Positions 1-32,318 of a stretch of 32,502 nt of DNA are shown here, piece by piece. The position numbers and the translations under genes are program-made. This DNA is from an uncultured Planctomycetales bacterium. GTDB lineage: Bacteria > Omnitrophota > Gorgyraeia > Gygaellales > Profunditerraquicolaceae. Each line of letters opens with the position of its first letter. Position 1 is the first letter of the stretch. The notes under the pieces are model-generated. The model did no database searches. It was not told the DNA's origin and saw nothing but the letters and a program-made list of their open reading frames with translations. The DNA is taken from assembly GCA_964405005.1 (NCBI GenBank), contig CAYOMI010000002.1, positions 1 to 32,502 of the forward strand, written 5' to 3'.

Positions 1-3000
1 ACTCTAGGTAGGCCTTGGCTGGAGGCATCTTTAGGAACATCTGGTTGATAGCCGGTTTTCTTAATGAGCCCATTAAGCAAATCCATCATTTCATCATATA
101 GGGCTCTATGCTCTGCATATATATTTGCTATATTATCTATTTCCTTAATTATGGCCTCAATTCTCTTATTTATATCCGCAGGAGTCTCTCCTTTATCTAC
201 TTTCGCATTTAAATCAAGGAGTTCTTCTTTAATTCTCGCTATCCTTCTTGCAGTTTCTGCTTTTTCCTGAGTATCTCTGACTACTCTTTTGCCGGGTATC
301 TCTACTTCTATTTCTTTCTTCTTACTCTTGGGTGTTACTGCCCTAGGCGTGGCTACTTTTCTCATAAATGCCCTAACCTTATGGGTTATTTTCTCAGTTT
401 CCTCGCGAACCTTTCTATCCAGACCCCTTGCTTCTTGCTTCATTCTATTAACTTGCTTTCTCATCCTTCTATCTTTAATGGGAAGGTCTTGGCTTATTTT
501 ATTTGTTCTTCTGTAATGCTTAACTATTTGCTTAACTATTACTAATATCTCCACCAGTAAAATAGCTCCCAGAACAACTAATGTTATATTATACGGGTTT
601 TTAAAGAAATTAACCCATTCATGAGAAGGCGTGGGGGTTGCCAAGCGATGAGTATCTATTGGTGATGGAGTTTGCGTAATTCCTGTGTCAGTAACCGTAC
701 CAGTCTTTGCGCCTACCAGAGATTCAGGAACATTTAAATTAGTAATATCTATTTTCTGGCCTATATAAATCTTATTGATATCTACAAATCTGGGGTTATC
801 TGCCTGGATTGCTCTGTAACTGTTATAAACCGCGCCATTATCACCCCAGAACTTGCCTGCCAGGAGGGATTTTCCAGTAGTAAGTAAATTTAAGGCATTT
901 AAGCCAATCCTTAACATCTCTACAATATGGCCCCAGGTATCGCCTTTCTGCACTAAAATATAAATCCTGTTACCTTGCTTGATAACTTCACCACAAGAGG
1001 CAAACTCTGGCAAAGCAAAGATAATAAAGGCGGCTACTAAAACTATTACTGTGGGTAAAATTGCCTTTATAAAACCAGAACCTCCATTGCCACCAAAACC
1101 ACCCTCAGGCATTATAGGATTATTAGGTGTTCCGGGTCCCTTGCCACCTGAACCGCCATCACCCCCAAAACCACCCTCAGGCATTATGGGATTATTAGGT
1201 GTTGTAGGTCCGGGATTAAATTCAAAGGTGGATTGTTCAAGATTAGGAGTGGAAGTTGTATCTGGAGCAGAAGGAGTAAATTCAAGGTTAAATGCCTCAG
1301 TTCCGCCAAATTCAGGCGTGGTTGAGGTAGAGGTTGGGATAGAAATAAAAAGTAGGTAGTCGTGTTCTTTTTTTGCTTCTCTTAATTCTTCTCCTGTCTG
1401 TGTTTTTTCTGTTTCCAGTATTGTTTCTTGAGAATCTACTTTTAGGGAGGCAGGAATTCTTGTGGGCTTATTATTTTTAGGAAGATTCTGGGTTGCTGCC
1501 CTCTGAAGATCTTCTCTTTTCTGTTCCGGGGTGCGATAAATCCCACTAGTGTTAGACGCAGAAATAGAACCTTGCTCAGTTCTCTCACTTAAAGTTCTTA
1601 CACCTTGGGCATCTAGGCTTTCTTTAGTTAGATTGCCTGCTTTGCCTTCTGCTACTACCTGCTCTTTGCCCACTAATGCTTGGGCAGTAGAGTCAGTATG
1701 CACAACTGCATTGGATTTACGGTTTAAAGATTTTGCAAATTTGCGCGCTTGTGTTAAACCACGACCAGCGATTGCGCTAATCGCTGTCGCCACTCTGATA
1801 CCCGGATGGTAAGTGCGGTGTGCTCCTCCAATAATCTTGATTAACTCTTTTACGCTCAGGACATTATCAGTTATCTGACTTAAGCCCAGGCCTAAACCAA
1901 AGCCCTGATGAATCTGGCCTATGCTGCTACCTGTCGGCGCAGGGATATTAGTAGGCGTCTCAGGTAAAGGTGCTGGCTGTTGCCTCTCTGCGGGAATATT
2001 CCTGCTAGTCTGGTGCTCTCCTACTATTGCCCTGGCCTGTGTAATTAAGGTTTCCTTATTGTCTAAGATATATTGCCTGGACGCAATACTCTCTGCCATC
2101 TGCGCCAGTAAGTCAAATATATTAGAAAGGAACTTTTCCTCAGTTAAATTATTATTGAATTCTAAGCCATTAGCCAACCTTTGCAGGTGCTCATCCGTAA
2201 TCTCGCCTAAATTATCAAAAGCCAGAGCCACTGCCACTGCCTCTTTTACCTCCTTAGATAAATAGGGATACAACTGGTTAAGTTGTGTATGCCAATACTC
2301 ATGCTTTAAATTCCAGAGTCGGAATTGACTGGATTCAGTGTGGAATTTAGGTTCAATGATTAAGCGGCCTTTCTCATCAAGAGAAGTAACAGGCTTAGCG
2401 TTAAACATCATAAAGATTGAATTGGCAGCACTGGGAACCGAAACTCCAAAGTCAGGCGCAATTTGTTTAATCTTACTGCTTAATTCCGTATGCGACTGCT
2501 GAAGTAATGTATCCTTTACCCATTTTGCTAATTCCTCTGAGTTCTCTATTTTTGCTGCACCATTTCCATTGTTAGTTATGGCGGCTGCTAATCTATCAAA
2601 GAAGGATAAGGCCTGATTATTTCCCTGCGTGGCTTCTTTTAATATGGCGGCTAAAGCCAGCCAGAGCACTACTTCTTGGTATTTAGAAGCATTTACTGCT
2701 GCCGTAAGATTTACGGCTAATTTACCATTTCTTATGCCATTATTTGCAAAATATGTTTCCGCAAGCAAGCGCTGCGCTTCAAATTCTTTAACCACCTCTT
2801 TATCTTCACCATTGTGCGCCTTGGCCAGCAGTTGATGATAGAAAGCAGTCATCTTTTTATTTAAAGGATCATTTTCTTTATATTCTCCATTCTTTTGGGC
2901 ATCCTCTATAACTTTAGCCTGCTCATCAAGGTAACTCTCAGTTACATAAATAGAGCCATTCTCCTGCCAGGTCTCTCCTACAAGAATGGAAATTTCTCCC

Positions 3001-6000
3001 TCTTTTAATGAAGTTTCCTGGCTAACATAAATTACCTTTCCTGACGTATTATTTATCTTATACACTACCAGGCCTGCAGGATGTGTCTTTCCTTCCTCAT
3101 CTTCTAACTGCAGATCTGACCAGCGCACGATATAATTATCTTTGATACCCTTTAAGTTATTTATCCTCTCTAAGATTACCTTTCTCTGCACAGGAGTAAG
3201 TTGTTCTAAATCAAAAATCTTTTCTTGCTCATCAACCACTTGACCATTTTTTATAGAGGCAGTAGCAGCTTTCTTCCATACTTCTACCTCAAAAACCTCT
3301 AATGCTTTCTTAACTACCTCTTCATCACTATCCTCTAATAATTCTGTAAACGCATCAACAACCTCATCATCTACCTTAATCTTCCTATTCTCTACCATAG
3401 CCAGCAGCGCAAGTTTACCTTGCTTATCAAGGCTGCCTTCCTCTAACATTTCTAAAGCAACTTGCTCTGCCGCTTCTCTATTTTGTGCCTTCGAAACAAC
3501 ATTTGCCCAGAATCTTATTTCTACATCCTCGTCATTTAGATATGTGTCTAAATCTTGACCTGCCTCTGCCAATAACTGCGCTGCTTTTCTACGGATGGAG
3601 ATAATCTTTTCTTGATATTGCTCATTGTTAACCTTTCCATAAGTACCCTTATTGAGCAAATTCAATAGTTGTCCTTTTACAGCATCAATATTTCCGCCAT
3701 TTTCTAACACTCCTAATAACCTTTCTATTTCTTCTAACTGCGTAAGGTTCGGCCTCTTTATGTTGTCTAATATAGTTCCCAATTGGCTGGGTTGTTTTGT
3801 CTCTCTTAAGAAATCTAATAGCAAGGTGCGGATTTCTGGATTCTTGAATTCACTGACATTAACCTCTACTTTTAAGTTAGGTTCTGCCTTTAAGTTAGGT
3901 TCTGCCTTAACAAATTCAGAAATAATCCTGAATACTATCTTAGCAAAACTCACCTCCAGTTTATCTCGGTCAAGTTTCATCTCTTTATGTAGAGAATTTA
4001 TTAAACTATCTATCATATTTTGGGTCGGTATCACTTTCTTATTCTCCACCAAGAAGGAGATGGTTTTTTCTAAAGCAGAAATGAGTTCTTGAGCGTCTCT
4101 ATTATCTCTTAAACTGCTAATAAGGTGAATAATTTCATCGGCCTTAACATTAATCTCATTTATTACTGTCTTATAGTTGTGCTCAACTAAGATATCTAAA
4201 AGATGATTAAATTTCTCAGTTAAGATAGTGCATAATGCAAGATTGCCTTCCTCTATAATAATACCCCAGGCAGAATTGATTTTTTCTTTATCTGCTTTTT
4301 GTGGATATTTGGCATAAACTGTTAACAAGGCAATATTTACCCAAATCTTTATATCTTTATCTGGGTCATTCAAATAACTTTCGATAGCGGATAAATCGCT
4401 TTCCACCAATGAAGCCAATACCTGCAGGGCAATAATTTTATCTGCCTTATCATCAGTTGATAATTTAGTTTTCATAAATTCTCGAGCAGTCTCTGGACCA
4501 AACTGGTTAATAAATGAAGATATCTCACTTTCAGAAAGTTTACCTTTCTTATCGCCTATTCTCTTTAGTTTCCTGTAACTTACGGTAATATCATTCTTTC
4601 TTCCTTCTAAGCAGTCAATAATCTGCTTAATCTCTGATGCATTAAGTGCTTTTTGAACATCTGAAATTTCAACTTTATTCTTTTCTGCCCAAACCTTAAA
4701 TAATCCTGCGGCTTCATTCCTTAAAGCAGCATTTTCCTCTTTTAGTAAGAATACTATCTGCGTAATGGTGGTTCTATTAACATAATCAAGCAATTTTTGT
4801 AATTTCTGAACGGCTTTAATCTCCATCTCTGGCTGGCTGTTTCTTAAAGCAATGTTTACCAAGGCCTGGACTAAATTCTTACCAAATTCTTCTCTCTCTT
4901 TTCCTTCTTTGACTTTGCTAAGATTAATGTTTTCTATTGTCGCCATTGCTTGCATATGGAACGAATCTAATTTTATATCCTCTTGTTCTTTCTTGCTCGG
5001 AGCATTGACAATTGTTTCTAATATAGATAAAGCCAAGGAAGGATTATTATCAGCGATTTTTGCAATTATGTCCATTGCCTGCTGGCGCACACCAGCACTC
5101 AATTCGTTATTAAGCACAATCTGGCTTAATGCTGGTAAAGGATTGTGTTGCTGGGAAACTGTAGAGATATCCTTTACCCTGCCATCTAAAAATGCCGCTA
5201 AGGCCTCAGCCAAAACATTATTTCTCTTATCTTTATCTTCTTCTCTTAGGCCTTGCTGTAATTTTGTGGCGTAATAATCCACTGGGTGGGTCACGGTTAG
5301 AGTGTCTTCTGTCTTTACATCTACTCCTGTATTAAATGCTCCAGTAAAATTAACTTTCTTAATTGCTTTGCGCAGTGTCTTTTCTTCGCCATCCCAGGCA
5401 TCAAGACCAATTTTTCCTTTTATAATTTTTAAATACTCTACATCCTTGATTGCGCCGTTATCGCTATCAAAGAGGAAATGATAGAAGGCCAATTTTCTAA
5501 CCTGCTCGGTTCTGGCACCATCACCCATTAAAATCAAATCCAGAACTCTTTCTTCGTAATTAGTACTTTCAAAAGTAACTTTATTATTTTCCCTTTGCTG
5601 TCTTAAAATTTCTTTTGCTTTAAGATAATCCTCAATGTCCTTTTGGCTAAATACAGATTTATTGAATTTAAATACGACCCTGCCAGTGTATAATGAGCCG
5701 ATGCCTGCAGCAATTGCTCCTCCTATTCCTGCTGCAATGCCGCCTATCCCACCGATAAAAATAGCCGCAACCAAAAGGCCTGCACCTATAACCGCAAAAC
5801 TTATAGAAGCAAAACTTGGTTTCCAAGAAGAAGTTAGCCGCAAACCGAATTTTCCTGCATAATCACTACTGGCAAATTCCTCTACTTTGGCTTGGGCCTG
5901 GGCTTCAACTGCTTCTCTAAAGATATATATCTCGTTGCCATTTCTGGCAGAAAGCGGTAGACCTTCAGCTACCTTTTCTCTACGCAGAGTAATAACCTCG

Positions 6001-9000
6001 CCTTCTTTTTCCGCATAAAAGGCCTCAATTCTTCCGTTTAGATATACCAAACGGAAATTATCACCTACATCAACCACTCCTTTGTCCAATAACAACCCAT
6101 TAATCTGCTCTACATCCAAACCTGCCTGCTGCATAAGGCCTAATAATCTTGTGGCTACCTGATTTAAAGAAGCGATATTATCTGCGGCTTCCTGTAGCGC
6201 TTGACTTACCTTTGCCTGCGCAATTAATTCCTTTGCCTTCTCTATTCTTTTTGTTTTATCTGACCTTACTTCCTCTTTGCTCAAAAGATAAGGAGCATAT
6301 CTTGAGATTACCTTATTCAGTCGGCTGTCGTTAAGCACCTTTTGCGTAAATTCCTCTTTATCACTGATAGGAATTTCTGTAGTACTTAACTTCTGCATCT
6401 CTTTGCTCTTTATTAAATGCCTTCCCCATGAACCAATGCCTCTACCAAAAATATCCTGCGGGAGTTTAGTAGAATTAAAGAGGTAGAATTGTTTTTCTGG
6501 AAGCGGCTGAACTGTCTGCACTGTTCCTTTTTCATCCAGCACAACCCACATATCCGGCCGGGCAAAAAGCAGCGTTACAAAATCGCCGTTAGCCTTCATT
6601 ATTAATAACGGCTGGCTATCCTTAGCATAAAATTCCTTATAAATATCGTCTGTTTTAACTCTGTAGGTATATGTCTTTTTGTGCAGTTTTTCCAGCAACT
6701 TAGGAATATTATTTACCTTGTGTAATTTCTCCTCCAGAGCATACGCTAAAATTACATCTATTGCTTCCTTTCTGTCTATACCCAGTGTTTCATTGAGGGA
6801 GTCTACTAAATAGGGGATATCCTGCTGAGAGCTTATATCCTGCAGTACTTTCTCTACTTCCCTTGCATTCATCAACAATAATCTCTTGCTAAGATTTTCA
6901 AGCCCAATCTCTTTTAAGAAATCCCGCTTTTCTTTCTCAGCCTTCAGCTCATTCCTCTGTAATTTATCTTTAAATTCTCTCAAAGAATCTTTTTGCGCGT
7001 ATAATATAACTTTACCTTTACTTTCTTCTGCGTGACGATTATAGAAACTTACTTTCTCCTGAGAGAGGATTTTTTCGTAACGGTGTTTTAATTCTTCGTA
7101 TCCTATATCCCAAATTCTCTGTGTCCTTGTAAACCTCACCTCTCCCTTAGAACCCAAATCCATCAGGAAGAGGAATTTGTTAAACTGTTCTTCGTAATTC
7201 TGCTCAGTTATAGTTTTATCTATGCCAAAAATCTGTTTTATTGCGGTTTGTAGGGAAGCATTTACGTTTTGCGTATCAAACTTAGCTAAGTCTGGCTGGA
7301 AACTCTTTCTCCAGTATTCAAAAAGGGCAACCTTCTCCTCTTTAGAAAGCTCATCCACCCGCTTCTGGGTGCCTTTGTTTCTTATCTCTATTACGCTCTG
7401 CGCGTCTTTTACCTGTTTTTCAATTTTCTTTAATTCTTCCTGCATTTTTTGCAAAACTTCCCTGGCCAGACGGGTATGCTCGCCTGCTAAAATATCCTTC
7501 GCCGCTTGCAGGCGCATAAGTTGTATATCTTTATCATTATCTGGAGTTGCTAACAAAGATTTTAGATTTGCTAAATAAACAGGGATCCTCCCTAAAGCAT
7601 CATTTCTACTATTCGTAAGTACCGCATCTTCTTCCAGTTTATCTAATTCCTTTAAGGCCTCCTCAACGCTCCTAATCTCATTTTTATCATCCTTTATCAA
7701 TCCTTTATAGAGAACCACTAAATCCTTAATTCTCTGCCGGTGCGTAACTGCTGAACTTCTTATAACAGCATCAATCACAGCAGAAACCGCATTAAGGTCT
7801 TCTTGTCTGACTTGAACTGTTTCTGCCTCTTGTCTCTTTAAATTCTTAAGTATCTCATTTAACTGCTTAATATTCTGGGAATAATCCAAGGATTGCCCCT
7901 GGATATTATTTATGGCTTGGGCTAAGTTTTTTAATTGCTGCTCAATTTTGTTAAGCTCATCTTTTACAGCAGTATCTTCCTGTTTGATTTCCTCACTTAC
8001 CCACTCATCTCTTGTAATCCCTGCTTCTGCCCAGCGGTGCACCAGCGTATCTAACTTCTTCAAAGTTTCCTTTAGGGCGCTCCTTAACTCTGCTTTTACC
8101 CGCTCATCCTTTATTTTTTCCAGTTGTGTATTGATAAATTTCTCGGTTATACCTTCACGGCCAAAGCCAGAAACCATATCTTTTCCCTCAGTGTTTAGGG
8201 TTTTTCTTAACTCCTGCTTAGCAGTAAGATGAACTAAAAGGTCTCTCCTGACCTTGTTATTTAGGGCCTCTATTTCTTTTACTTTTTCCTCTGCGCTCTT
8301 TTTCTCTTCCAGTACCTTCTTTATGGTGTAGTAAAAATCTTCTCTCACTTCTGCCTTTTGGTTATCATCTAATGTGGTAGCTATCCCTGGCTGGCTTTTG
8401 TCAAAACCAAAATGTTTCTCTGCTGCTTCAATTGCCTTAAATATCTGTTTGGCCTGCTTTTTTAATTCACCTCCCACATAGGTTGTGGCGTCACCCTCAA
8501 AGAGGGATTTTGCTTTTCTGTTCTTCCTATCTTTAAGCCAATCTTCAGCAATCTTTTTAAAATGGTCATCTTGCTTTTCTGATAATTCCTGTAAAGCCTC
8601 TCGCATTCTCGTAACACAATCCTCGTGCTTTTCAGGCTTATCAGAAACCTGCAAGGTCTTCTCTAAATTTTCCTTGAGCATATCACCCAAAGCTACAGAC
8701 CTGGCTTTACCGCACAATTCCTCTCTCTTATGCGCATAATCTTCATCTACTAATGTAGGTAGGGAACGCAGATACCGGTAGGTTTTCTGCTCTTCTTCAG
8801 ACAGGAAAGAAAGATATTTTTCTACTCTCTTATCTGATAACTTTCTTATTGCGCGAATGTCTAAAGTATCTTTAGCAATAAAAGGATTAGAGAATGTTAC
8901 AATTGTTTTTATAACATCATCTCTCTTTATTCCGCGTTTTGCAAATTTCTTGACTATCTCTTCGGCAATCTCATCTGCTTCTTTAAGACCCAGCACAAAA

Positions 9001-12000
9001 TCAGGGGATTCCTGTTTCTTTTTATGGATAGTATCAAGGATAGTAGCATCTAAGTTTGCTCTACCAAAATTAAGCCGGTGATTAACGTAACTGTCAGGGT
9101 CTTTTTGCGCAAAATGGATGAGAAAACCTGTAGCAGTGGCTGCTATACTGTATGGTATCCAGGTAAGCCAACCCAATCCCCGTGTGGTAAGCCCGCCTAA
9201 TCCCATACCAAACGGCGTGAAAGTTATCCATTTACCCGGCTGCCTATACCCAGATAACCCCAGTTTTTCTCTCCACAATTCAATCCAAGCGGTTCCAGAA
9301 GTATCAGTTTTACTCTTTCTCAGCGTCTCTACCACATCCACAAAGGGGACCTTCTTGTTACCAAAATTTGCTTCTCTTGCCTTTAAGAACTCATCATAGC
9401 CAAGAGAAATTCTCTTATCCAAAGAGCGTAATTGGTCTGAATAAAATTCTACGGTTTGTTTATCCGTCGCAGATAATAGGCCCTCTAACAACCTATTATA
9501 AACTTCTCTGTACTTTTTCTCTTCCTTTATCCGCCAAGAGAAATTTCTTAAACTGAATGCCAATGCCATAGTTCGTTCTTGCGCCTGCTTAGCTTCTCCT
9601 TCCATTTTTTGTATTGGGCTAAACAACTTCTTTATCTGCTCTTCTAATTTAGCCTCATCCATTGATGCTGCCTTCACCAGCAAATTCCGCGTCGGCCTTG
9701 CCTCTGTCCAGTAATAGAGACGGTTATTATTAAGAACAAATGATTGGGATTGCTCCAAGAAAGAAGTTCTATTTCTTAAGCGATGCTCTTTAATTATTGC
9801 TACAGGATTCCACCATTTCTCTCCTGTGCGGGTTACTCCTCCCAAGTAGTAATAAGGATTATCTATAAAATCTTGAACAAGAATCTGTTTATCTTCTAAT
9901 CTTAATAGGCCGGATTGAGATTGGCTTTGTGAAGTAGTTGCTCCTTGTGGCTTCAGTATATCTTGGACATCCAGTATATTTTGCCGGATATCTGGCAGAA
10001 GCCGAATCCGATCATAAGCACCGACTACGCTGGCTAAATGGTTAAAGGTATATTCAGGATAAATCAGGGAGGTGACAAAATCTGCATCTGCCAGCCGCTG
10101 CTCTCTTGGAGTTTGACTAGCGGAAGAAGTAAATAAAGAATCATTTATTGTAGTGTAAATTTGGGTTATTCCTTGAATAGAAACTGGGCTAAGTGATTGC
10201 CCGGATGATAAATCGGGGGCGAGTTTTTCAAGTACAGGCTCAAGTACAGGCTTAAGAGAGGGCGCAAATGGCACAATATGCCTTAATAACTCTGGAGACC
10301 CCCGCGTGCCGTTTGAAAGGATAACTGTATCTAAAAGACGTGTAATTGCTATCCCTTGGCTTTCTGATAACTTAGATAGACCGGCTTGCTCACGCTGGGT
10401 ATTTAGGTAGTTAATTACTCTCGCTGCCTTGGCATCAGTGGTGCGTAAGTTATTTGCCTGAATATACTCGGTAAAGAGGTTACCTTTTAAAGCCTTGCCA
10501 GCAGCAACTATCTCCCTAAAACTAGAAACGCCGTTTATTGTCCTTTGGGAATCTGCTGTTATGTTGTTATATCCCTTAACCGCCACATCTATATCTGTTA
10601 AGGTCTCTTTGGCATTAAGTTTGACTAAAGGGTTATTTATATCGCTACTACGAAGTATCAAGCCCATATACCCTTTTGCCTGAGTGGCCACACTCTTTAA
10701 AATCCTCTCAATTTGTTTTTCCGCAGAATCAGGGTATTGGGATACCAGCAAATCATCCCAGGTAGGCTTATTCTTGTAGTCAATGGCATCCTTAAGAATC
10801 TCTCCAAGAGCCCTAAAGGACTTATGGTCTTCTGCTGCCTCAGCAGTAACCAGCATATTTTTTATCTTCTCAATAATAAAAGTTGAGTAGGCGGCATCTC
10901 TTAACTGATTGCTAATGGCTTTGTGAATTTCTACTACTTCTAATCTCTTGGCATTGGTAAGCAAACCTTCTACATCTAATCTCTCGGCATTAGTAAGCGA
11001 ACCTTCTACATCACCGCTACGTCCTTTAATCTCTATAACTTTCTCTCCCTTATAACGAGAGTTAATTCTTGCATTTATTTCATTTAATAAATATTTAGGC
11101 ATATTGTCTGTACTCGGGGCCTGAAAATATACCCACCTTTCTGCATCTTCTCCCTTGCGGTTGTTACGATGGATACCCTGGAGCAAACGAGTTAACCGCC
11201 AGTTCTGGCCATCAGCGATAACCAGATTAATATTCCCCTGATAATCCACACCTGTTGCTCCCTGTTCATTAGATAAAATCACCCTTATCTTTCCATTGTC
11301 TAATCCCTGTACGTTTATCCACTCCTTGCTTAGGGTATCAATATCCTGGGGCTTGCTGTTAATATTTATTTCTTTTAACTCAATTTGTGATTTTTTACTC
11401 AGTTGTTTCTGCAATTCTTGATAAAGCTGGCTATCCCTAACTAAGATAAGCCCATTCCTTCTTCCCTCTAAAATTTTCTGCACAATATCCCCTGCTAATT
11501 TTTTACTATCGGAGGTATGTGAAATAACGCTTGTACCATCAAACTTTGTCTCGGAAATTTTCTCTATACCCCTTCCTATTTGGAACTTAAGCATTAATTC
11601 CACAGAATCAAGCGTGCCGGAAAAACCTAAGACGCTGGTATGCGGGCTGAATTTAAGGATTTCTGTCAAGGTTGCCTGCGAATTTGCCGGTGAGGTATAT
11701 AATTTAGTAGGGTCAACTCTATGGGCCTCTTTGGCTGCCAATGCTGCCAATAGATACTTGTCGCTCATTACCTTATCCGGCTCAACCCTTCCTCTTTCTA
11801 CTACCAGGATACCCCCTTTATCCTTCCCTTCATTAATGACTTTATATCTTCCGTTTTGTCCCTCAGGATAAAACCTTGCTCTCAACACTGCCTGGGTTAC
11901 CTCTGGCGACAAATGCAACTCTCGCTCAAATATCTCTCTGGCCTTGGCATTTATCACTACTTTTTCCATCAGCGCATCGTAATAAAAACCTGGTCTTTGA

Positions 12001-15000
12001 TTCTCTTTTACCTTTTGAAAGCTCAATTGCTCAATCCTGCCTTGGTGTATCAACTGTTTAATTTTATCCCAGGCCTCTTTGGTAGTCCTTATTATATCAG
12101 TAGATAAAGGTATTTTTCCTTCAGCAGTAATGTAAGCATTGTCGCTGGCAAAATGCAGGTGAAACTCATCAAAGCGGATGACATCCTGAGTATTTAGAAC
12201 TTCGCGGAAAGAACCACGCAGTATATTATGCAGGTGACCGAAAGAAACATCATCAATCAAAATTACGGCTTTAGGATCTTTAAACAGCGCCTCCAATAAA
12301 TTTGCTTCACCGTTTCCTATAGGGACGAGCCCTAAACCAAAAGTGTCAAAAATCTCCTTGTATTTGGCTTTGGAGACCTGTTCTCCATCCCTAACCACCA
12401 GAGTCATATTCTTTCTGAAATTAATCTTGCCTTCTTTATCTACTCCTTCTGCTCCCCATAAAGCATGTATAACCAGTTCAATCATTCCAGGAAGGGTTTT
12501 TCCTCCTCCGGAGCGTAAGAGGGGATTCTTTTCTTTAAATAAACCACAGAGCATCTGTAATCCTTCTGTAGTCTTTTCAGGTTCCTTAATTTTTCCATCT
12601 TCACCAAATCTTAATTTTGCTTCTACTGCATATGTCTTTAAGCCCACTTTGAATAAATCAAAGTAGTAGTCACCTGCATATTTCCCTTTGCCTATAATCC
12701 CCTTGGCTTCTTTTGCTAAATCCGCTCTTATCGCTTGATCGCTTCTGCCCTCAAATGAAGTTATGCTCTGATTAAATTCTCGGATGAAATTATCTAGGTT
12801 AGCATTTAAAATGCCTGATTTAGGCTTCATTGTTCCGTTGGGATTAAATTCTACATTTAGTTTGCCCTCGTTATTTATTAACCCTACTTCCTGCGCCTTC
12901 TGCAAGGTTGAAATCTGAGCAATCAATCCTTTAGCTGCCTTCTTCAAAGTTGCATCCACTAATAAATCTTCTCCTTTGACACTCTCGCCGTCTTTTGTGT
13001 TGCATATTTTCTCCAATAGTTGTTGTGCCTCGCCTATTTTGCCGTTATCAACTAATTCTCCAAATACTCTCGTTCTTAACTTATGCTGAAGTTGAAATTC
13101 TAACCCGCTATTGGGGTCATTAATTATTTTCTCTATTTCTGAACGTTTAAATTCATACCTATAGCCGCCTTTTACCTTTAGCGTAATAATTTCTTCTTCT
13201 TGGCCATTGGCTGGTGTTTCTTTAAATTGTTTTTTAAGTTTCTGAATTTCTTTCATAGAATTGGCCTTAAAGAGGGCAAATCTTGCTATGGTAGAAATCA
13301 GCACTGGATCATTAATATCCAAGGTATCTGGAATATCCTTACCTGTCTGGAGATAATAATCCCGGACCCTATCCATCTTTCTAGTTGCCTCTGCATCTGG
13401 ATTCGAGGTTTGAGTTTTAAGCCTCGCAAAATAACCCTCGACATATCCTTTATGTAATGAATCTGCTTTGCTATGGAGTTTAGCAAGTTCCTCTTGGCCT
13501 GCTCCCTCTAGATACCTTTGCCAATAATCATAGCGCGCCTGATAATAATCCTTTTCTGTTTTGCTTATAGGTTTCCCAAGTGCTTTGCTGTAATTATCTC
13601 TTCGTGTTGCAAAATCTATTACTAAACTTTCATATCTACTTCTTAATTCTCCGGTTAATTCTACCTCAATCTGGTCTCCTATATTTATTTTCCTTATTTT
13701 TCCCTGTTCGGTTTCAGCGCCAGATTTAATCTCTCTCTCACTTTCACTAACTAAATCACTACCTTCATATTGTTTATAACCGATTTTAACCTCTCTGAGT
13801 CCGCCGACACTCCTTTGCCGCTCAATTAATACCTCAGCAATCCTCTCTGCGCCCTGGCCTCTTTTTAATTCGCCAATATCTATTCTTGCGGAAAGTTTAT
13901 CCTCGCCTACCTTAAACTCTACTGTCTCGCTACCTGTCTCTGTCTCAGTAACCACCTTTAAGGATTTAGAGGTAAGTAATTTAGGGTTCCTTTCTATAAG
14001 ACCTGCGTTAAACCCTCTTAACTGAGCATACTCTTCCATTAAAGGCATCAATCTATTTGCCTTATCTCTCAATGCCTTTAACTGCTGCATTGTTTCTTGA
14101 CTGGCCCCACTATTCTCCAATGCATCTTCTGCCTGCTGGGTTGCTCTTCCTTTTCCAAACAAAAATATCTCAAGGTGTTTTTGTATTGCTTTCTGTTTTG
14201 AAGTTTGTTCTGGTAAAAGAATTTCTGCACGGCTAATGATTGCTTTCTTTGCTGCTTCTTTATCACCGCTATTAAATGCATCTCTTATACCTTTTTCTCC
14301 TCTATAAACTTTACTAATTGGCTTTTCAGAAGATCCATAAATGGTCACTTCGCCCTCAGGAGGAGCATTCTCTTCACCAGAAAGAATTATTTTTCTCTTG
14401 CTAGGGCTGGGAAATTCTCTCTCTATTTTTTCCTGAATGCCTGCTTCCTTTCTCGATATTTCCGCAATTGAACTATATTTATTAAATCTCTGGAATTCTT
14501 TTAATGTGGCGCCTCTGTTTATCTCGCCAGGGCCTTGGGGTCCGCGTCCCTCATGCACAAGAAGCAACTCAAGATGCTCAGGTAAAATATTGCCTGTCTT
14601 TATAGCCAATCTAACCCAACCTATAGCATTTTCCTCTTTAGACGAAGGAGCAACTGCTTTATAATTTGCCATCCCTTTCTCAAAGTTCTCTCTATTTGTA
14701 AAATTATTGTAGACCCTGTTAGTTAAAACATCTGTATAAAGACCAGCCCTCTTTATACTATCCAGAATCCTTGCCACGCCAGTTACATAACCGGAAATAT
14801 AAAACAGAGAATCAATTTCTGCTACGATAGAGTTTTTATTCATTATGGCAGCGAGTTTTCCCAATTTTCCTGGCGCAAGCGCGGATAGCCATTTATTTTT
14901 GGCAAACGCCCAATCCGCAGCTGATACTATTTTGGTTGCAACGCCACGTGAAGCACCCAATTTCACACTCAGACTTTGATAACCGGTCTCAGGCGCTAAC

Positions 15001-18000
15001 TCGCGGGGTGTATTCATTGCTATCCTCAGCAAAACCCCCATAAATTTGCCGTGCTTGGCAGCAGCAATATACTGCAGTGCCTGCGCCCGGTCAATAGAGA
15101 AAAGTTCGCCAGCAGTAAGAGGTCTATAATGTATCTGTCTTGTTATGGGATCTTGTTCTTCTTTGCGGAAAGGATACCATTTGTCTGCAAATTTCCAACC
15201 CCAGACCGGTTGATCCATATTAATGTAAAATACATGGTCAACAGTTTTCTCAACTGCTCCTATGGTTGTATCCCAGACCGGCTTAGCCTTATCCATAACT
15301 AGAGAAATAAATGGCCACTTTACAGTTCCTTTTAAAGGCTCGGCCACAAATTGATGCACAAGTCTCTGTTTTGGCCCTTCAGCTAACTTTACCTCTTCAT
15401 TTGCCAAAGTCCCGTAATGTTTAACATTCTTACCCACATTATTAAAGTATTTATTACCCGCCTTTGACAAGGCAAACTGCACTAACTTTGCATAAACCGC
15501 ACCTCTTATTCCGCTTACTACAATCTGTCCAGGACTGGCTTTACCGGGTATTAAACCATTACCTGAGATTAAATTACCATCTTCATAAACCAAGGGTTCT
15601 GCTCCAAAGGACCTGCCTGTTTTCTTTTCTAAGTAACCAATACCAAAATCTCTTCCTATATTTATCCCTGCGCCAGTGGCTATAACACCGACATTACGTA
15701 TTAATCCGCTGTAGTCGGAGAATTTGCCTGTAAGATTTCTATTTCCTCTTAAAAATTCGGAAAGCTTGCCAGAAGAGGCTAGAAAACGCGCGTATGCTCC
15801 CCAAGTAGCTGCCTCCATCGCTGCTTCTTTCCATTCATTAGTCTTAAAACTATCTAAATCTATTGCCAATCTTGCCGCAACAGCAGTGGCTGTCCAGGTT
15901 GCGAGAGTAAAAGTCCTCTGCGCTGCCCACGTCCATCTATTTATTATCAGCCTATCATCTACAACGCCGTAGTATGGATTAAAAGAGAAATTTAATATCT
16001 TACCGAATCTATTCTCTGTCCAGAATTTTGATTTTGCAAAATCAGTATAATTTGCTACTCCTCCGGCAAAACCAATTATTCCGCCAAAGAACGCTCCGCC
16101 TTTTGCTCCTGCCATCCAGCTTTCGCCCTTTAGACCTTGAACGATTTTAACTAAACCTCTCCCTGCCTGACCTCTAAATACATCCTTTATGCCTCCTCCT
16201 AAACTTAAAAAATCTAAACCCGTAAAACTCTGAATATTAAATTTAACTGTATCGCCAAAACTTGCATTATTTAACTCAGGGGCGTGCAACACATTATTGG
16301 TTGCCATATCCACATTACCAAAGAGAATAGCATTATTAACTATACCTTTATAAGTAGTAAATTTTATTGCCGCGGGTTTCAAGTTCGGCGCAATATTCTC
16401 TGTAGGAATAAATCTTCCATCAGCGGTTTTCTGCAGTAATCCTTTGGCTGCAGCCCTATTATTAAGGTGTATATTAAACATATGTAAACCAAAAATAGTC
16501 CCAAAGGTAATCAGTGTTTGAGGAAGATATTTCTTATTTACATCCCAACCCCAGAGCGGCTCCTGGTTCCAAATCATATTGAGAGTTTTGTTCACCAATA
16601 ATTCTCCTCCTGCAAAAGCCAATCCGGATAGAGCGGCACTTCCTTTTGTCGCAGGGCTAAGTAGCCAGTTGGCCTTTGAAGAAAGATTTAAACTGCTTCC
16701 TACTTTACGAAGAAGTAACAATTCTGCCAGTATCTCAAATGCATTACCTGTCCAGCCAGCAGCTTTCAGGTACCCTTCCCGCTGCTCTTTTGCCCAAGTA
16801 AAAGGATGCCAGTCTCCTCTCCACATATTCCATATTTCCTCACCAAGGGCCTTATTTTGCTCGTGAAAGACCTCTTTGTGTCTCCAATAAGAAGGCATAC
16901 AAGCATAAATAATAATCTTCTCTAATGCCCAGCCAGGTGATTCTACTATGCCTCTTGCTGAATTAAACGCAGTTCCTGCCAGCCTGAAAGGAAACTCTAT
17001 TTCCGCACCTGTTACCATTAGAGCCAGATTAAGATTGGGAGCGTATAAAGCTTTTTCTATAGGGACGAGTTTTCTCGTAATCCACCAAGACCTGTTGATA
17101 TAATCTTGTAAATCCTTCTGCGTTTCTCCAATCCATATGCTTGTGCTTTTGGCTATGTCATAGAGGCGTTGGTCTTTCTTATTGGAAGAATTCTTTGATT
17201 GCATAATTAAATCTGCGGCAGCTAAAACCTCCTCCAGTGAAACATTTCTCTGTTGAAGCTGTCCTCTCAAAAGCTGATTCTCGCCATGCCGAGCCTTCAT
17301 AAGATCCTCTGTTGCAAGCTCTACACATTCTCTATCAAGCTCGATTGCTTCATTAGACTCGGGTGATAGTTTATAGAACTTATCATTATCCCCGCTCTTG
17401 GAATACTTAAAAAAGACTCTGCCATCATTAGCGTAATGCACAATCTGCACAGGTTGACCTTTGTAATAATAACCTAAAACATTATTTTCATCTTCTTTTA
17501 TCTCTAGGCCTCCGGTAAAATGATTTACGCCTTTAGATAGCGGGTCAGTAGTAAAGACTTCACGGTAAGCAGCCTTCGCTGTATAACTTTTGTTAGAGAC
17601 GACTACCTGAATGCCTATTGAACCATCCGGATTCCTGCGCACATTTATCTTTGCATTAGGATTATTTTCTATTTGTCTAAGGATTCCCAAAATACTCAAC
17701 ATGCTATTGTCTCCCAGATTGCTAGCTATACTTAAATACTCTTTGGCTTTCTGGTTATCCTTTCCTAGTAGGTAAGATATGCCAAGGTTGTGATACATTG
17801 CATCTGCGCCGGGAACACTCCTATCCGTTAATCCTTCCATAAGCTGAGCTGCTTCAGTTATTCTTCCGTATTCAAGGCTGCGCTTTGCCATTTCTACTTT
17901 TTTCACATCCTTATTTTGAAAACCACAAACGATTTTTGACTTACCAGCGAGCATTTGCAACAAGTGCTCTCTAACAACTCTTCCTTCGGCATCCTTACCA

Positions 18001-21000
18001 ATAACCCAGACCTTAGAAAGATCCCAACCTGCTTCTTTATATCTCTTCTCAAGTGAAGAATCTCCACTTCCGCGTATAGCAAGTTCTATAATATCTTTTC
18101 CGTTATGCAGGGAGACATGGCCTATGGGATTATCGTCGCGCGTCATATATACAATGCTATATTTATTAGTACCGATTTTTTCCATTAATTCACAAGTAAG
18201 CAAACTAATGCCTACACAGTTGAGCCCCTTCTTACTGTCTTTATCTGGATTTATTCCTCCAATATGTAAGTTGGTATTATTATAGATTAAATCTAAAATA
18301 AATTTCTCCTTTAATTCCTGAGAAATATTCAATTTTTGCATCTGCTGACCAAAATTATCCCAGGTTAATCCGCCGGATACACCCAAACGCACAATCAAAT
18401 TTTCTATTGGTATATATTGACTCTTTGGGTCTCTCCTTTCAAATAATTGATTATACAAATCCGTCAACCATTTCTTAGAGTCGGTGGAAAGATGGCTGTA
18501 AAAACCAATATCAGCGCCAGAGAGCACTATCCCACGTTGGCCGAGGAATAAAACGTACGAACCATTTTTAAAGTAAAGTTTTTGGTCATTGGGGCTGCCG
18601 CCGACTATCTGTTCCCTGTGCTCCACCTCATTGCCATTAATTGCTACAACCTGCGCCTCACTTCTAGCCCTATGCTCAAAAGTTACAGTGGTGGTATCTT
18701 TTACATTTTGTGTATTCCCAGAGATATATTGCCTATCATAGCGGTATCCACCCCGAAGAAGTGTAATACTCGGGCTACTTTGTCCTTCCTGCCAGTTGAT
18801 TTTGTATTTGCTTGCGGATAACCAATGGCCCTCTGTTCTCTGACCACCAGCAGTAATATATTCGGGTATGATTATTTCAGTTTTTCCTTTCGCCTTGGGG
18901 GGAGAAACAGAAATTCCTTGTTCAATTTTCTTCTCCTTCTCTGAAGCATTTTTACTTAATGGAGATATATTGTAGGGTTGAAATCCTCCATTTAAAAGTA
19001 CGGCCACTAATTGTTGGTTTTTCTTTGTAGCAAATAGGGCTAAAACACCAGTTCCTTCAATTGGTTCTGCATCAGCATTAACTCCAAACAATCTAGATAT
19101 GGCTTTAGTAAGTGCAACCCCGGCGTTGGTGTTTTTCTTATCTTTATTATAATCTATTAGTGCTATATCTTGTGGCTCCAGAAGATACCCTTTACCTTTC
19201 ATATGCAGCATTGTTACTTTTTGGCCTTCTACAATCTTTTCTTCTAATTTAAACTCTGAAGGATCATAGGTATCGGTCAAATTAAACCCTCCCCAGCAGA
19301 ACCAACTTTTCCAGCCGCGTGGATTTTCTCTCAGGGTTTTTAATTTGAATCTCGCATATGGACTAAGTGTTTTTCTCGCTATAATACCATATTGTTCATC
19401 TGAAGAACGTTTTTTGCCATTTCTGTCACGCAATAAGGCAGAGTGTACATCTTTATTTGCGTCTACCCAAAATAATAACTCATCTCCTTCTCTATCATAT
19501 CCAATCCATTTCTGCCCTGGCCGAAGCTCTGACTCCTGCTTTGTCTCTTTTCCCATTACCAGATCCAGAAAACTTGACTGGTTATTGAAGGCGCCTTGGT
19601 GGAAGAAGATCTTTTGAGTGCCGTTAATGTCTAAGAGAGGGAGACCTAACTCTTTATCAATCACTGCAGGAATTTTATCGAGCCACTTTCCTTTTTCAGC
19701 ATCAAAATATTTCAACGCAGAGAATGAGCCGGGCTTATAGCGGTATTGGATAGTGCCTTTCTCATCCTTGCCTAATACCTCAAATTCATAGGAAATATTA
19801 AAAAGTTTGCCAATAATATTGCCGTCTTTATCCGTAATAAGGTGATTGACGCCCTCGGCTCTTTCACCTACTCCTTTATTATAAGGCCGCTCATTAGCAT
19901 CGAATTTTATCTCTACCGGCTTTTTATTATTCATTCCATAGGGCTTAAGATAAGTTGGGCCAGCGGTGCCCATCTGCTTGGCAATGGCAATTTCAAAATA
20001 AGGAGCCACGCTTTCTTTGGTAAAGGTTATATTACCATAATATCCGTCTAAGCCAGCGCTGGCAGAGAATGTTCCCTGGTGGGAGAAGATAGCAATCTGG
20101 TTGTCGGCAGTCAAAATCCTTTCTTTAGTGCGACGTATCTCAGAAACTCTGTCTTTAACATTAAATAATGGTTTATCATCCTTCTTATTATGCCTGTCTT
20201 CAGGGGCCTTTTTGTCTTTGGGTGTATCATAATCTAGCGTGCGCTTGGCAAATAAATCTATGCGCGCCGTGCCAAAATCCAAACCTACATATTTTCCGTC
20301 ATCACTTACCAAACCACGAATATGCTTTTCTATTCTTCCATTCTCCCTTCCATTATCAAAACCTTCGGCAGAGACTGAGTCTTTCTTATATTTATATTCT
20401 ACGCCGCTCTCTTTGTTGTAACCCGTAATCTCACGAACAAAGGAGACACCAGATAATTTGGCTGCCATCTCCTGGATTTCCGTGCCTTTTCTGTTCTGTT
20501 TATTTATAGGTTTAATGCGGCCATCCTCTCTTACTCCCGGATAATTCACCAGCATATTCACCGCCTCAAACTGCTCGCCTGCGCCCAGGGTAAAGAGCTG
20601 CTCGTGGCTGTTAAATTCTAATACCCTTGCTTTTTCTCCTTTTTTATGCTCTTCTCCGTAAGGTAATACATAAACCCTGCCTTCGCCTATTCTATTTCCT
20701 GTTTCATCTACGATATTCTGTAAACCCAAGGCGATTCTTTCAAAAGAGGTAATTTCTTTACCATTTTCCATTAAGGCCGCATTTGCATAATAGCCATCTA
20801 AAGTTGCTTGGGTAGAGAAGGTTCCCTGATGAGAGAAAATACCCCTTTGATTATCACCAGTAAGAGTATTGCCGCTTACGCCTATATTAATTTTATGACT
20901 TATTGTCTGGTCTGCTCTGGCTGGTTTGTCGGTCTTACTGGGCTCATAACCCAAGCCTGACAATTCCTTCTTTAGTGTGTTTATTTGTTGTTCAATTACT

Positions 21001-24000
21001 TGGCGATTTTGCTTCTTATCTAACTTTTCTAATTTCTTATTCAATTGGTCTATTTGAAAATTTATTTCACCAATTTTATTTTGCCGCTCAACCTCTTTTT
21101 CCTCAATATCAGAGAGATGTTTGCCTAATAAAGCAAAACGGCCATTGCCAAAGCCTAAGATGGGCGCACCTTCTTTTGTAAAGGAGGCGGGTTTTTCTAT
21201 TTTTACTTTAGGGCCTACGCCATCGTCAAAACTATCTGCAGTAAGAAAATCATACGTATAATCAATGCGACCTGTCTGTGCGTTATAACCCTTAATTCTG
21301 CGTATAAAGGAGGCATCCTCTAATTTTCCCAAGCCGCTTCTATTGGTAGTATCACGCTCACCTTTTTTATCTACTTGCACATAGTCCGTAAGTAGATTAA
21401 TTTTATTAAACTGTTCTCCTACGCCCTCAGTAATAACAAAACCGCGCGAATCAAATTCTATTTTATTAATCTTACCGGGAAGCAAAGATATAAGATTGTA
21501 CTCTTCAATTTCGCCTTTTCTCCTTGTTTGGATACCTACTGGAATATTAGTAACTTCTGTGCCTGCGGTATTATTCAGGAAAACATCCTCAAAATTTCCC
21601 GAAAGACTGACATAGGGAGAAGTTAAATTATTCAGGATGAAATCTACTTTTTGTTGATTTACCAAATGCCTGCCGCTTTCTTCTTCTACTCTAAGATTCT
21701 CTTCAAAGACTGGGCCGTGGTGTCTCTGGTAAGGTGGTGGAGAAGTATTGTTTTGGTTAAAGATCTCTTCGGCTGTAGGAATTTTTTGGTCAATAAGCTG
21801 TTTAAAAATTAAAGGATGTTCTTGATTTATCTGAATTATAGGCTTGCCATTTTCAAGGCGGCCTGTTATAGCCAGGTCTTTTATATCTTTTCCCACTAGC
21901 ACCTTGGCATTTTTTGCTGCAAAACTTAAAAACCCTGTTCCATTCGCCCAGAAATCCACGCCTTCTAAAAGCATTTTATCTGGGCTAATTGCAATCTCTC
22001 CGACCTTCTCTCCCTTCTTATTCACTACTGGAGCCTTTATCGTTCCCTTCTCATCCTTAATAAAATAAGAGCCTAAAGCCGTCCCATCCACCCAGCCGGA
22101 TTTAGCATTAGTTCCTGCCACAATACCTTTATCGCCAAAGGTAAAGGTTCCTACGCTACTTAGAGCCGGATTATCAACCCTGCCCCACTTATAATCCTTC
22201 GCCGGATTATTAGAGTCATTCGCTGCCGCAGCAATAATATAACCTCCTGTGCGCTCATGCTTATCATTCACAAAAGCATGCGTGGCCCACTCTGTCATCG
22301 CCCCTTCTGCTCTATAACTTGTGTCCTTATCAAATAAAAGCCGGTTATTTACGCCTACGCTTACCCAATTATTTTTAATTTCAGTCTCCAAGGCTGCCAC
22401 TGGTTTTAAACTGCCATCAGCTGAGCGGATTTCGTAGAGGCCTTTATTAACCAATTCACGAATAAAGAAATCTGGTTGACGGTTGGAATCAGCGTTTATT
22501 GTGGTAGGACCTGTCTCTGCGGGATTCTGCACACCCGCATTATTATTCCCATTTCCCATCTCAATCTTGGGAATAAGCTGGGTTAAATAATAATCTTTGA
22601 CTTGCCAAATCTTTCCATCCTTGTATCTTATATCAAGGTGTTCATTTATGGGTATAGCTTTTAGTTCTTTGCCTGTCTTTTGCTGGTAATAACCCCTGAC
22701 CTCTGCAGAGCCATCTCTCAAAGAATTATTATAATTACTATCTTCTTTCCACCCGCCTGTGGGTGTATAGTTAGCGCGCCAGATATCCTGCCCGGATTTT
22801 GCGCTATAAAGATACGCCAGATTAGCCACATCATTACTCACAGTCCTTAGCCACTCGGGTTTACCCCATTGCATATCGCCTTGGCTGGTGACACTGTATC
22901 GAAGCGCATTATTTTCAGATAATCCAGGAGTAACGGTAATTTCTTTAGTTTGAATATTGCGCAGAACATTGGTAGCGTCTTCAAAGCCCATTTGAACCTG
23001 GCCAGTCGGCACCTGCCAGTTACCCCAAATAGCGGGTGTATAATCCAGGCCTCTTTCTCCTGCACCTAAATAGAATTTTGCTTTGCTATCTTTCTTAATT
23101 CCTTGAATTAAAAGGGTATCCCTATTGGGATTTGTCAACTTACCCGAACCTCCTGCGCCGATTTTTTCTACTAACTGCCGGGTGTAAGCGCTATTATCAC
23201 TTCCTGCACCCATTCCAGTAGGTATATTTACGTGGCTGGGCATCTGAAAATCACCTTGGTTCTCAATTGCTAAAAGCCGACCCTTATTATCCCCAATCAG
23301 TGCTGTAATATCAGCAGTGCGACGGTTAGTATAATCTGAACCCATCCAGGATTCTGTGCTTCCATACAAACGAACCTTCGAATCTTGTCCTGTCTTTATA
23401 TTAACCGCCTTTTCTAGGCTATCCACACTCCCATCTACAAACCAACCCTGTTTAAGGGGCATTCTTGCTAATGCTTTTCCCTGATTAAGAGTTCCATAAA
23501 ATACACGGTCCACACCTTGACCGGTAATATTAACACGCGCGGTTTCACCATTGTCATAGGTGAATGATAGAGCATAAGAACGCTCTGGCCCCAATTGCGG
23601 GCCCACGCCCACAATTACGGGTTTATTTGCTGAGGAATCGGGATTAATGAAGAATATATCTTGGCCTTGACCAGCCGCAAATTTAATTTTATCCCCCACT
23701 CCTGGAGTAACGCCCATATTGGTAAACCTGATAGTACTGTTTGGCTGCGGAGTCAGGGTATAAATACTTTGCGACCACTGCGTAGCAGTTACATTCATTG
23801 ACTCATTATATTTGGAAGGAAGCAAATTTCCTGCGGGGTTAGAATATGCCTCAGGAACTACTGGGTTGCCAATCGCCCTGCCATAAGGCTGCATATCCCA
23901 GACTAGAGGGGTGGAAATGCGGGCATTATAGGAGAGGTCATTAAAATATTTCCCTACCCAGACCGCCATCTCTCCGCTTACCGGGCCGCTATAAGAAAGA

Positions 24001-25452: not shown

Positions 25453-25508
25453 AAAACAAAAACCGGATTGTCAAATACTAACTTTTGCGTCGGTATTCGG
25501 CAACCCGG
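25453..25508 (-). terminator. Intrinsic-terminator (attenuator) hairpin plus U-tract in the giant-gene leader; overlaps the 3' part of the riboswitch aptamer
   Basis: In the RNA, CCGGGUUGCCGAAUAC pairs with GUAUUUGACAAUCCGG over 16 positions (1 C-A mismatch, 2 G-U) with a 14-nt loop, followed by UUUUUGUUUU (plus 25453..25462). The ATG lies about 37 nt downstream. Confidence 0.7.
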
Positions 25509-25587
25509 CTATCCTGTTACAATAAATTTTATTAGGACCCGCGGCTTTGCGCCCCCATCTCACAATGGGTTTGCCCTTTTCGCTACC
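25492..25587 (-). promoter_or_regulatory. c-di-GMP-I (GEMM-I) riboswitch aptamer, copy A (giant-gene leader)
   Basis: RNA: GGUAGCGAAAAGGGCAAACCCAUUGUGAGAUGGGGGCGCAAAGCCGCGGGUCCUAAUAAAAUUUAUUGUAACAGGAUAGCCGGGUUGCCGAAUACC. It contains the GEMM-I blocks AGGGCAAACC, a GNRA-capped hairpin (CCCAUU-GUGA-GAUGGG), GGCGCAAAGCC, a second hairpin with a CCUAA receptor-like element, and AGCCGGGUUGCCGA. GGUA...UACC can close P1. Confidence 0.8.
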
Positions 25588-25605: not shown

Positions 25606-25634
25606 AATATAACATTAAAATACTCTTTTGTCAA
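25606..25634 (-). promoter_or_regulatory. Sigma70-like promoter of the giant gene with an extended -10
   Basis: Minus strand reads TTGACA (25634..25629), a 17-nt spacer ending in TGT, then TATATT (25611..25606). The predicted TSS near 25599 sits just upstream of the aptamer. Confidence 0.65.
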
Positions 25635-32277: not shown

Positions 32278-32318
32278 AAAACAAAAGCCGGATTGCTTTT
32301 TGCTTCGGCAACCCGGCT
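32278..32318 (-). terminator. Intrinsic-terminator (attenuator) hairpin plus U-tract in the leader of the 2,089-aa gene; overlaps the aptamer 3' block
   Basis: In the RNA, AGCCGGGUUGC pairs with GCAAUCCGGCU (11 bp including one G-U) around the loop CGAAGCAAAAA, followed by UUUUGUUUU (plus 32278..32286). The ATG lies about 36 nt downstream. Confidence 0.7.

Follow-up and report, generated by a model that had tools for sequence, protein, structure and literature searches.

A highly divergent SecA-like ATPase module inside a giant protein of Omnitrophota

Introduction

Can a motor of the SecA type be built into the middle of a giant membrane protein, or is the ATPase found there an ordinary nucleic acid helicase that merely shares a RecA-like core with SecA? 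The question is raised by a stretch of DNA of 32,502 nucleotides (the window), which is positions 1 to 32,502 of contig CAYOMI010000002.1 in assembly GCA_964405005.1. The assembly is named after an uncultured Planctomycetales bacterium and belongs, by its GTDB lineage, to the Omnitrophota. The Omnitrophota are tiny, possibly predatory bacteria. In a six-frame scan, the minus strand of the window carries a single uninterrupted open frame of 8,476 codons, from 25430 to 3, which continues beyond the window. Its earliest ATG lies at 25415 (start-codon check), and the encoded giant protein is longer than 8,476 residues. Residues are numbered here with residue 1 at nucleotide 25430.

The order of elements along the giant protein is as follows: a signal-peptide-like helix, a C39 peptidase domain, a long unannotated stretch, a SecA-like motor, a conserved block of 340 residues and transmembrane helices. 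A preliminary description of this DNA, made from the sequence alone, had placed a superfamily 2 (SF2) ATPase resembling the SecA motor at 11150-12520. It had considered the whole to be a multi-pass giant envelope protein, and had offered a helicase module of a polyvalent protein of mobile elements as the alternative.

The ATPase motifs and their conservation

The five motifs on which that assignment was based (GGGKT, DEFH, SGT, GATGVD and Q-x3-R-x2-R) are all present in the claimed order and in one frame, and their span matches the interval given above. No P-loop-like site other than that of motif I was seen along the 8,476 residues of the giant protein. In an alignment of 17 relatives, which are 22-35% identical to the module of the window, the invariant columns contain the Walker A lysine (K4311), both acidic residues of motif II (D4421 and E4422) and, in motif VI, Q4751 and R4755. 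The glycines G4602 and G4619 near motif III are invariant as well. Such a pattern is as expected from purifying selection acting on an active ATPase. Because the catalytic residues are kept across very divergent relatives, the module is probably an active ATPase.

Similarity of the module to SecA

The similarity to SecA emerges at the level of the family. A phmmer search of PDB sequences with the single module gave no match, and the family profile alone detected SecA. In a comparison of this profile with all PDB sequences, the best match was Thermotoga SecA (E 2.4e-6), followed by mycobacterial SecA2 (E 0.007); the next family was eIF4A (E 0.026), so that SecA and SecA2 are the sole significant families. 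The profile alignment places NBD2, the second nucleotide-binding domain (NBD), on residues 408-584 of T. maritima SecA, with GATGVD paired with AGRGTDI of SecA and the Q..R..R of motif VI paired with QLRGRAGRQGDPG. Motif I aligns to SecA residues 86-119. When the family was aligned with E. coli SecA by hhalign (query 1-525, SecA 66-645; global E 6.7e-7), the two ran colinear across motif I, the preprotein cross-linking domain (PPXD) of SecA, which binds the preprotein, and the whole of NBD2.

The predicted structure leads to the same protein. Modeling of residues 4245-4860 by AlphaFold from the single sequence gave no usable model, with a predicted local distance difference test score (pLDDT) of 34. 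The motor modeled with the 17-sequence alignment reached a pLDDT of 80.8 and a predicted TM-score (pTM) of 0.76. In a Foldseek comparison of this model with the PDB, SecA or SecA2 occupies every rank from 1 to 21 (E 4e-14 to 5.6e-9), with SecA leading the search in near full-length alignments, and the first match outside this group is DinG (E 1.4e-8). The best TM-scores belong to complexes of SecA and SecY captured in translocation with a substrate (6itc, 0.61; 5eul, 0.59). The profile search, hhalign and Foldseek thus all agree with the earlier claim that the module is closer to the SecA DEAD motor than to an ordinary nucleic acid helicase.

The sequence between DEFH and SGT is 183 residues long, and about 160 of these residues constitute an inserted domain. 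An insert between motifs II and III is at the position where SecA carries its PPXD. The inserts of XPD and DinG sit elsewhere: the iron-sulfur (FeS) domain is found between motifs Ia and II, and the Arch domain between motifs III and IV. The insert contains YKVINEG...ILVVERGRVEPDKVMSDKYLLAALAAKE and SQATLTEIL. In the hhalign alignment, YKVINEG...ILVVERG...MSDKYLLAALAAKE is paired with YIVKDG...IIVDEHTGR...WSDGLHQAVEAKEG of E. coli SecA, and SQATLTEIL...VLGFSGT is paired with QTLASIT...LAGMTGT. The model is confident over the insert, the pLDDT being mostly 80-96.

In common with canonical SecA and SecA2 (for example PDB 6itc, 5eul, 1tf2, 3din and 4uaq), the module has motifs I (xGxGKT), II (DExx) and III (xGT) in NBD1, a PPXD-like insert between motifs II and III, and motifs V and VI with Q-x3-R-x2-R in NBD2. 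The identity to canonical SecA is, however, only about 14%. Furthermore, canonical SecA is a free soluble protein of about 900 residues, whereas the present motor lies some 4,300 residues from the start of a polypeptide that exceeds 8,476.

The conserved block after the motor

The motor is followed by a block that is conserved in most of the relatives, out to residues ~5140-5200. Its consensus reads LLxNAxxLE..S.AL.HQ.REAAySR.LIEPLK ... SNGxRGSP. Sequence comparison of the 340 residues with the PDB, with Pfam and with the C-terminal part of SecA detected no similarity. The block was also considered as a diverged SecA scaffold, and this assignment was rejected, as the signal did not rise above that of shuffled controls. 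The part of SecA that is recognizable in the sequence of the module is thus NBD1-PPXD-NBD2 only. At the start of the block, the gene contains a short in-frame tandem duplication (10934-11012) with a unit of 36 nucleotides in 2.2 copies, which encodes the repeated peptide NAERLDVEGLLT/NAKRLEVVE.

Relatives and their distribution

When 1.84 billion representative proteins were searched exhaustively with HMMER, 31 relatives were found, all of them inside large open reading frames; 11 have E <= 1e-30, and the best has E 3.6e-67. A signal of this strength is far beyond chance. Word-indexed homologue searches found none, neither for the module by itself nor for the 17-sequence alignment. The scan of GTDB species genomes used a 5-sequence alignment; the same scan with a single protein found no relative. 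The related genome loci number ten, of which eight are labeled Candidatus Omnitrophota and two 'uncultured Planctomycetia'. The loci are 7-21 kb in length, and in nine of them the frame of the module stays open through most of the fetched sequence or the whole of it (2,200-7,200 residues). The tenth, L015, is a fragment of 45 residues at a contig edge. The contigs of three relatives are filled entirely by the giant gene.

Eight of the named relative proteins are labeled Omnitrophota; the other labels, across loci and proteins, are Planctomycetia, Deltaproteobacteria or absent. The relatives occur almost only in giant open reading frames of Candidatus Omnitrophota. In public sources they go under names such as 'hypothetical protein', 'ATP-binding protein [Candidatus Gygaella obscura]' and 'cysteine peptidase family C39 domain-containing protein', and none is named SecA.

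The N-terminus, the membrane segments and the topology

Simple hydropathy analysis finds four strong hydrophobic helices in the giant protein, at residues 72-90, 6541-6579, 8123-8141 and 8281-8299. Of the earlier notion of a multi-pass giant envelope protein, the giant size is borne out by the length of the open frame, and the multi-pass character is a reasonable reading of these four helices, crude as the hydropathy is. The first helix is preceded by a basic stretch and followed by PEQVAQA. It is signal-peptide-like because of the AXA motif in this sequence, the cleavage site being read by eye. The C39 domain that follows is intact, and its C180 and H269 are conserved in the relatives. The helix and the C39 domain form an N-terminal unit (residues 72-308, nucleotides 24507-25217) that is common to the relatives P0008 (Candidatus Gygaella obscura) and L012, with 44-56% identity. 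Between this unit and the SecA-like block lie thousands of residues that show no conservation. Immediately after the C39 domain comes a stretch of low complexity in which Gly, Ser, Tyr and Asp are abundant, GDWVSDSYDYGSDSYGSSDFYGSNYGSGYTNYS (residues ~330-380, nucleotides ~24290-24440, minus strand); the corresponding region of the relatives is also compositionally biased and cannot be aligned.

The stretch of 39 residues at 6541-6579 could cross the membrane as a single long helix or form a helical hairpin. The last helix, at residues 8281-8299, is followed by a very basic tail. A second short in-frame tandem duplication in the giant gene (1074-1211; a unit of 72 nucleotides in 1.9 copies) lies near the third membrane helix. 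In addition, a cluster of weakly hydrophobic, Gly-rich segments is found about 1,000-1,300 residues upstream of the motor. These segments may be membrane helices, possibly of the glycine-zipper type; similar and often stronger segments are located 900-1,400 residues upstream of the module in eight relatives.

The location of the motor with respect to the membrane depends on the Gly-rich segments. For the motor to be cytoplasmic, an odd number of them would have to span the membrane, and the stretch at residue 6541 would have to be a hairpin, which is possible. The same ambiguity of topology is reported for other giant proteins of Omnitrophota in West-Roberts et al. 2023 (bioRxiv 10.1101/2023.11.21.568195).

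The remainder of the giant protein gave little in sequence searches. The approximately 8,000 residues outside the motor have no match among PDB sequences in a phmmer search, the C39 domain is the sole domain found there by Pfam, and no internal protein repeats were found. The G+C content of the window is about 40%, its strand skew is uniform, and no tRNAs were found in it. The coordinates of all features are collected in Table 1.

Table 1. Features of the giant gene and of its surroundings in the window
Feature	Residues	Nucleotides	Strand	Evidence
Giant gene, 3' end incomplete		3..25415	minus	Six-frame scan, start codons; several blocks conserved in Omnitrophota giant open reading frames
N-terminal hydrophobic helix	72-90	25161..25217	minus	Hydropathy; conserved in P0008 and L012
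Peptidase C39 domain, Cys C180 (KPCGAKAL), His H269 (GDHYILV)		24507..24899	minus	Pfam PF03412, E 8.3e-8
Cluster of weakly hydrophobic Gly-rich segments, e.g. AGAKGGAFFGGIIGFAGGV	~2969-3321	15468..16526	minus	Hydropathy
SecA-type NBD1, first part; motifs I and II, then 'stem' strand NAYITAEG	4285-4433	12132..12578	minus	Motifs, alignment, profile, hhalign, model
Motif I, SGGGKT	4307-4312	12495-12512	minus	Motif scan in open frame
Motif II, FDEFH	4420-4424	12159-12173	minus	Motif scan in open frame
PPXD-like domain, between motifs II and III	4434-4594	11649..12131	minus	hhalign, insert-only profile, model, Foldseek
NBD1 return strand and motif III; VLGFSGT aligned with SecA LAGMTGTA	4595-4628	11547..11648	minus	Alignment, profile, hhalign
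Motif III, FSGT	4603-4606	11613-11624	minus	Motif scan in open frame
SecA-type NBD2; motifs V and VI	4629-4775	11106..11546	minus	Pfam Helicase_C, profile alignment, invariant Q and R
Motif V, GATGVD	4724-4729	11244-11261	minus	Motif scan in open frame
Motif VI, QGIHRNNRKGE (Q4751, R4755, R4758)	4751-4761	11148-11180	minus	Motif scan in open frame
Family-specific conserved block, ~340 residues	4810-5149	9984..11003	minus	Conservation among relatives
Hydrophobic stretch, 39 residues	6541-6579	5694..5810	minus	Hydropathy
Two strong transmembrane helices	8123-8141 and 8281-8299	534..1064	minus	Hydropathy
c-di-GMP-I clan aptamer (Rfam RF03167, c-di-GMP-I-GGC), 5' leader of giant gene		25495..25584	minus	71.4 bits, gathering cut-off 59; E 3.2e-15
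Sigma-70-like promoter: TTGACA, 17-nt spacer, TG-TATATT, extended -10, 11/12 matches		25606..25634	minus	Consensus match
Large gene upstream of giant gene, 2,089 residues		25975-32241	minus	Open frame
c-di-GMP-I clan aptamer (RF03167), 5' leader of OmpA-domain gene		32303-32423	minus	61.6 bits, gathering cut-off 59

The upstream gene and the riboswitches

The protein of 2,089 residues encoded upstream of the giant gene has a single recognizable domain, which is an OmpA-type peptidoglycan-binding domain (residues 1482-1567, E 5e-14). An identical protein is encoded on a 6.7-kb JGI metagenome contig (sample 3300022556). Both this gene and the giant gene carry in their 5' leaders a riboswitch aptamer of the cyclic di-GMP (c-di-GMP)-I clan (RF03167, the GGC variant). 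An aptamer of the same family is also present upstream of a related Omnitrophota giant gene (L012, 1-89, plus strand), and another is listed at L001, 80-200, plus strand. A sigma-70-like promoter lies 22 nucleotides upstream of the aptamer of the giant gene; the number of such sites in the window is not above that in shuffled sequences. No intrinsic terminator was found between this aptamer and the ATG, and because of this the expression platform may act on translation.

The literature search found no report linking riboswitches to giant genes of Omnitrophota. In the 2023 giant-gene paper there is mention of PilZ genes and of GGDEF domains, though not of a riboswitch, and term searches of it turned up neither an upstream riboswitch nor a conserved block of 340 residues after the motor, as the present family has.

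Function of the motor

The following observations bear on what the motor does: 1) the module is homologous to SecA and has its fold; 2) the residues for binding and hydrolysis of ATP are conserved; 3) the insert is at the position of the PPXD; 4) the relatives are restricted almost entirely to giant open reading frames of Omnitrophota. By analogy with SecA, it is fairly probable that the module is a catalytically intact, highly divergent SecA-type motor of a giant membrane protein, which moves unfolded polypeptide as SecA does. ATP would most likely be bound between the two RecA-like lobes, as it is in SecA. Cycles of ATP between the lobes would then drive the PPXD-like clamp to grip the unfolded polypeptide and to advance it. 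The motor might act in cis, on segments of its own giant polypeptide, or else on a partner protein located at the inner membrane. The neighboring membrane helices would tether the motor, and together with the block of 340 residues they would take the place of the SecA scaffold and wing. That the motor powers the export of its own polypeptide or of a partner is plausible by the same analogy, and it is the hypothesis already published for these giant proteins.

Several results weigh against a translocating SecA-type motor. The Pfam families SecA_DEAD (PF07517) and SecA_PP_bind (PF01043) have no match at E <= 1 in the module of the window and none at E <= 0.1 in any of the 17 members of the alignment. 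In favor of SecA, a consensus emitted from the family hidden Markov model does give a faint match to SecA_DEAD, although below threshold (E 0.003; 17.2 bits versus a cut-off of 24.6). Sequence support for the PPXD by itself is weak, though at the right place: the best local match of a profile of the insert alone falls within the E. coli PPXD (residues 307-331), with a score of 19.5 versus at most 15.8 in 20 shuffles. After NBD2, no helical scaffold, two-helix finger, wing domain (Pfam SecA_SW) or C-terminal linker is detectable by sequence, in which the module differs from canonical SecA. Canonical SecA needs the scaffold, the two-helix finger and the wing to act on SecY. Finally, a naive reading of the hydropathy puts the motor after the signal-peptide-like helix and ahead of the following strong helix, which is 2,250 residues downstream, and so nominally on the exported side of the membrane. 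This placement is the main problem because there is no ATP on that side.

Two of the checks that the preliminary description had proposed, a Pfam search and a structure prediction followed by Foldseek, had different outcomes. In the module of the window, Pfam detected Helicase_C alone, just at the threshold (23.7 bits versus a gathering cut-off of 23.5), and by itself this search would have looked negative. The structure prediction produced a confident model, with SecA and SecA2 at ranks 1-21.

Much the same evidence bears on the possibility that the module is an SF2 nucleic acid helicase or translocase, either of the DEAD/DExH type or similar to DinG and XPD with an insert, and that its likeness to SecA reflects the shared RecA-like core. 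SF2 helicases such as DinG/XPD, RecQ and UvrB have in common with the module two RecA-like lobes, a DExH-type motif II and the Helicase_C signature. Helicase_C, DEAD and ResIII are the only such Pfam families in the members, where DEAD and ResIII are below threshold (the consensus reaches 21.5 bits for DEAD versus 26), and SecA_DEAD is nowhere above threshold; moreover, DinG, XPD, RecQ and UvrB appear in the Foldseek results from rank 22 (E 1e-8 to 1e-6). These helicases are nevertheless outranked by SecA and SecA2 by 5-6 orders of magnitude (4e-14 for the top match versus 1.4e-8 for DinG), and in the profile search of the PDB SecA and SecA2 are the sole significant matches. The large insert is where SecA has its PPXD, and the FeS, Arch and RQC domains of the helicases were not found in the module. 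Nor does the module conform to the DEAD/DExH helicases: Helicase_C alone reaches its threshold in the window, and the spacing of motifs II and III is long at 183 residues. NCBIfam and PHROGs gave no meaningful match. A nucleic acid enzyme would also be oddly placed in a membrane-tethered giant envelope protein. A helicase is hence improbable. The alternative offered at the outset, that the module is a helicase belonging to a polyvalent protein of some phage, plasmid or conjugative element, is very improbable. Iyer and colleagues reportedly described in 2017 giant multidomain proteins with SF2 modules in mobile elements, which would be a precedent. Mobile-element genes are found near some giant loci of Omnitrophota according to a 2026 preprint (10.64898/2026.06.07.730766). 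However, tblastn of the module found no match in 50,697 phage records or in 72,556 plasmid records, an exact-pattern DNA scan of viral and metagenome contigs found no copy of the window, and Pfam revealed no mobile-element, conflict or replication domains among those of the window, which has no mobile-element genes. Eight of the ten genome loci and eight named proteins carry the Omnitrophota label. It is the profile search of the PDB, Foldseek and the phage and plasmid searches that disfavor both of these explanations.

A different possibility accepts the SecA ancestry and dispenses with translocation. The motor might have become an ATP-driven conformational switch or remodeler, which would extend or retract the giant protein or gate the processing by C39, or it might act after delivery into prey. 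Such a role would suit a module in which scaffold, two-helix finger and wing are not detected and which is followed by a family-specific block instead. The naive topology, with the motor on the exported side, also points this way, as do the very long branches of the SecA-like clade of giant proteins in West-Roberts et al. 2023. Against it, the PPXD-like clamp, the element with which SecA grips its substrate, is kept and confidently modeled, and the catalytic residues imply that ATP is available, favoring the cytoplasm of the producing cell; for the variant involving prey, there is no evidence of delivery. On balance, a switch or remodeler appears unlikely. It is quite doubtful that the motor and the block of 340 residues together form a self-contained, membrane-tethered machine for translocation or remodeling that is distinct from Sec. 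Switched on by the cyclic-dinucleotide riboswitch, such a machine would feed or reposition parts of its own polypeptide or, if it is on the exported side, act in a prey cell after delivery.

Comparison with published giant proteins

The SecA-type motor proposed here has counterparts. The study of West-Roberts et al. 2023 describes giant proteins of Omnitrophota with many transmembrane regions and with C39 peptidases near N-terminal signal peptides. It reports in them 'divergent secA DEAD helicase domains' that overlap SecA preprotein-binding domains and have no scaffold and wing, places these SecA-like domains in a separate long-branched clade, and proposes that they aid the export of the giant protein or of accessory proteins. 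In the 2026 preprint, the two largest clusters of architectures of long Omnitrophota proteins are those of C39 and of SecA_DEAD.

Like the published modules ('Archaeovorin' and related proteins), the present one resides in a giant open reading frame with membrane helices and a C39 domain near the N-terminus, beside a signal-peptide-like segment. It likewise consists of a single divergent motor of the SecA DEAD type with a preprotein-binding-type insert and without scaffold or wing. The present motor is not of a new kind, because it fits the 2023 description feature by feature. To judge from the description, it is likely a member of the published SecA clade of giant proteins. One difference is that the published modules were found with Pfam SecA_DEAD and SecA_PP_bind, whereas the present subfamily is too divergent for both. 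What the present motor adds is a subfamily that is beyond the reach of the Pfam SecA models and unannotated in public databases, the definition of its conserved catalytic residues, the block after the motor and the association with a riboswitch. Because the Pfam and NCBI names miss this subfamily, it is undercounted in surveys of giant proteins that rely on 'SecA_DEAD'.

Implications

The motor is about 500 residues long, well delimited and confidently modeled. Together with the block of 340 residues it makes a unit of study of about 870 residues that could be expressed alone. The riboswitches tie the expression of the giant gene to second-messenger signaling, which fits a role at the surface or in attachment. 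A built-in motor derived from SecA is the only obvious clue to how a cell makes, inserts and exports a polypeptide that is tens of thousands of residues long.

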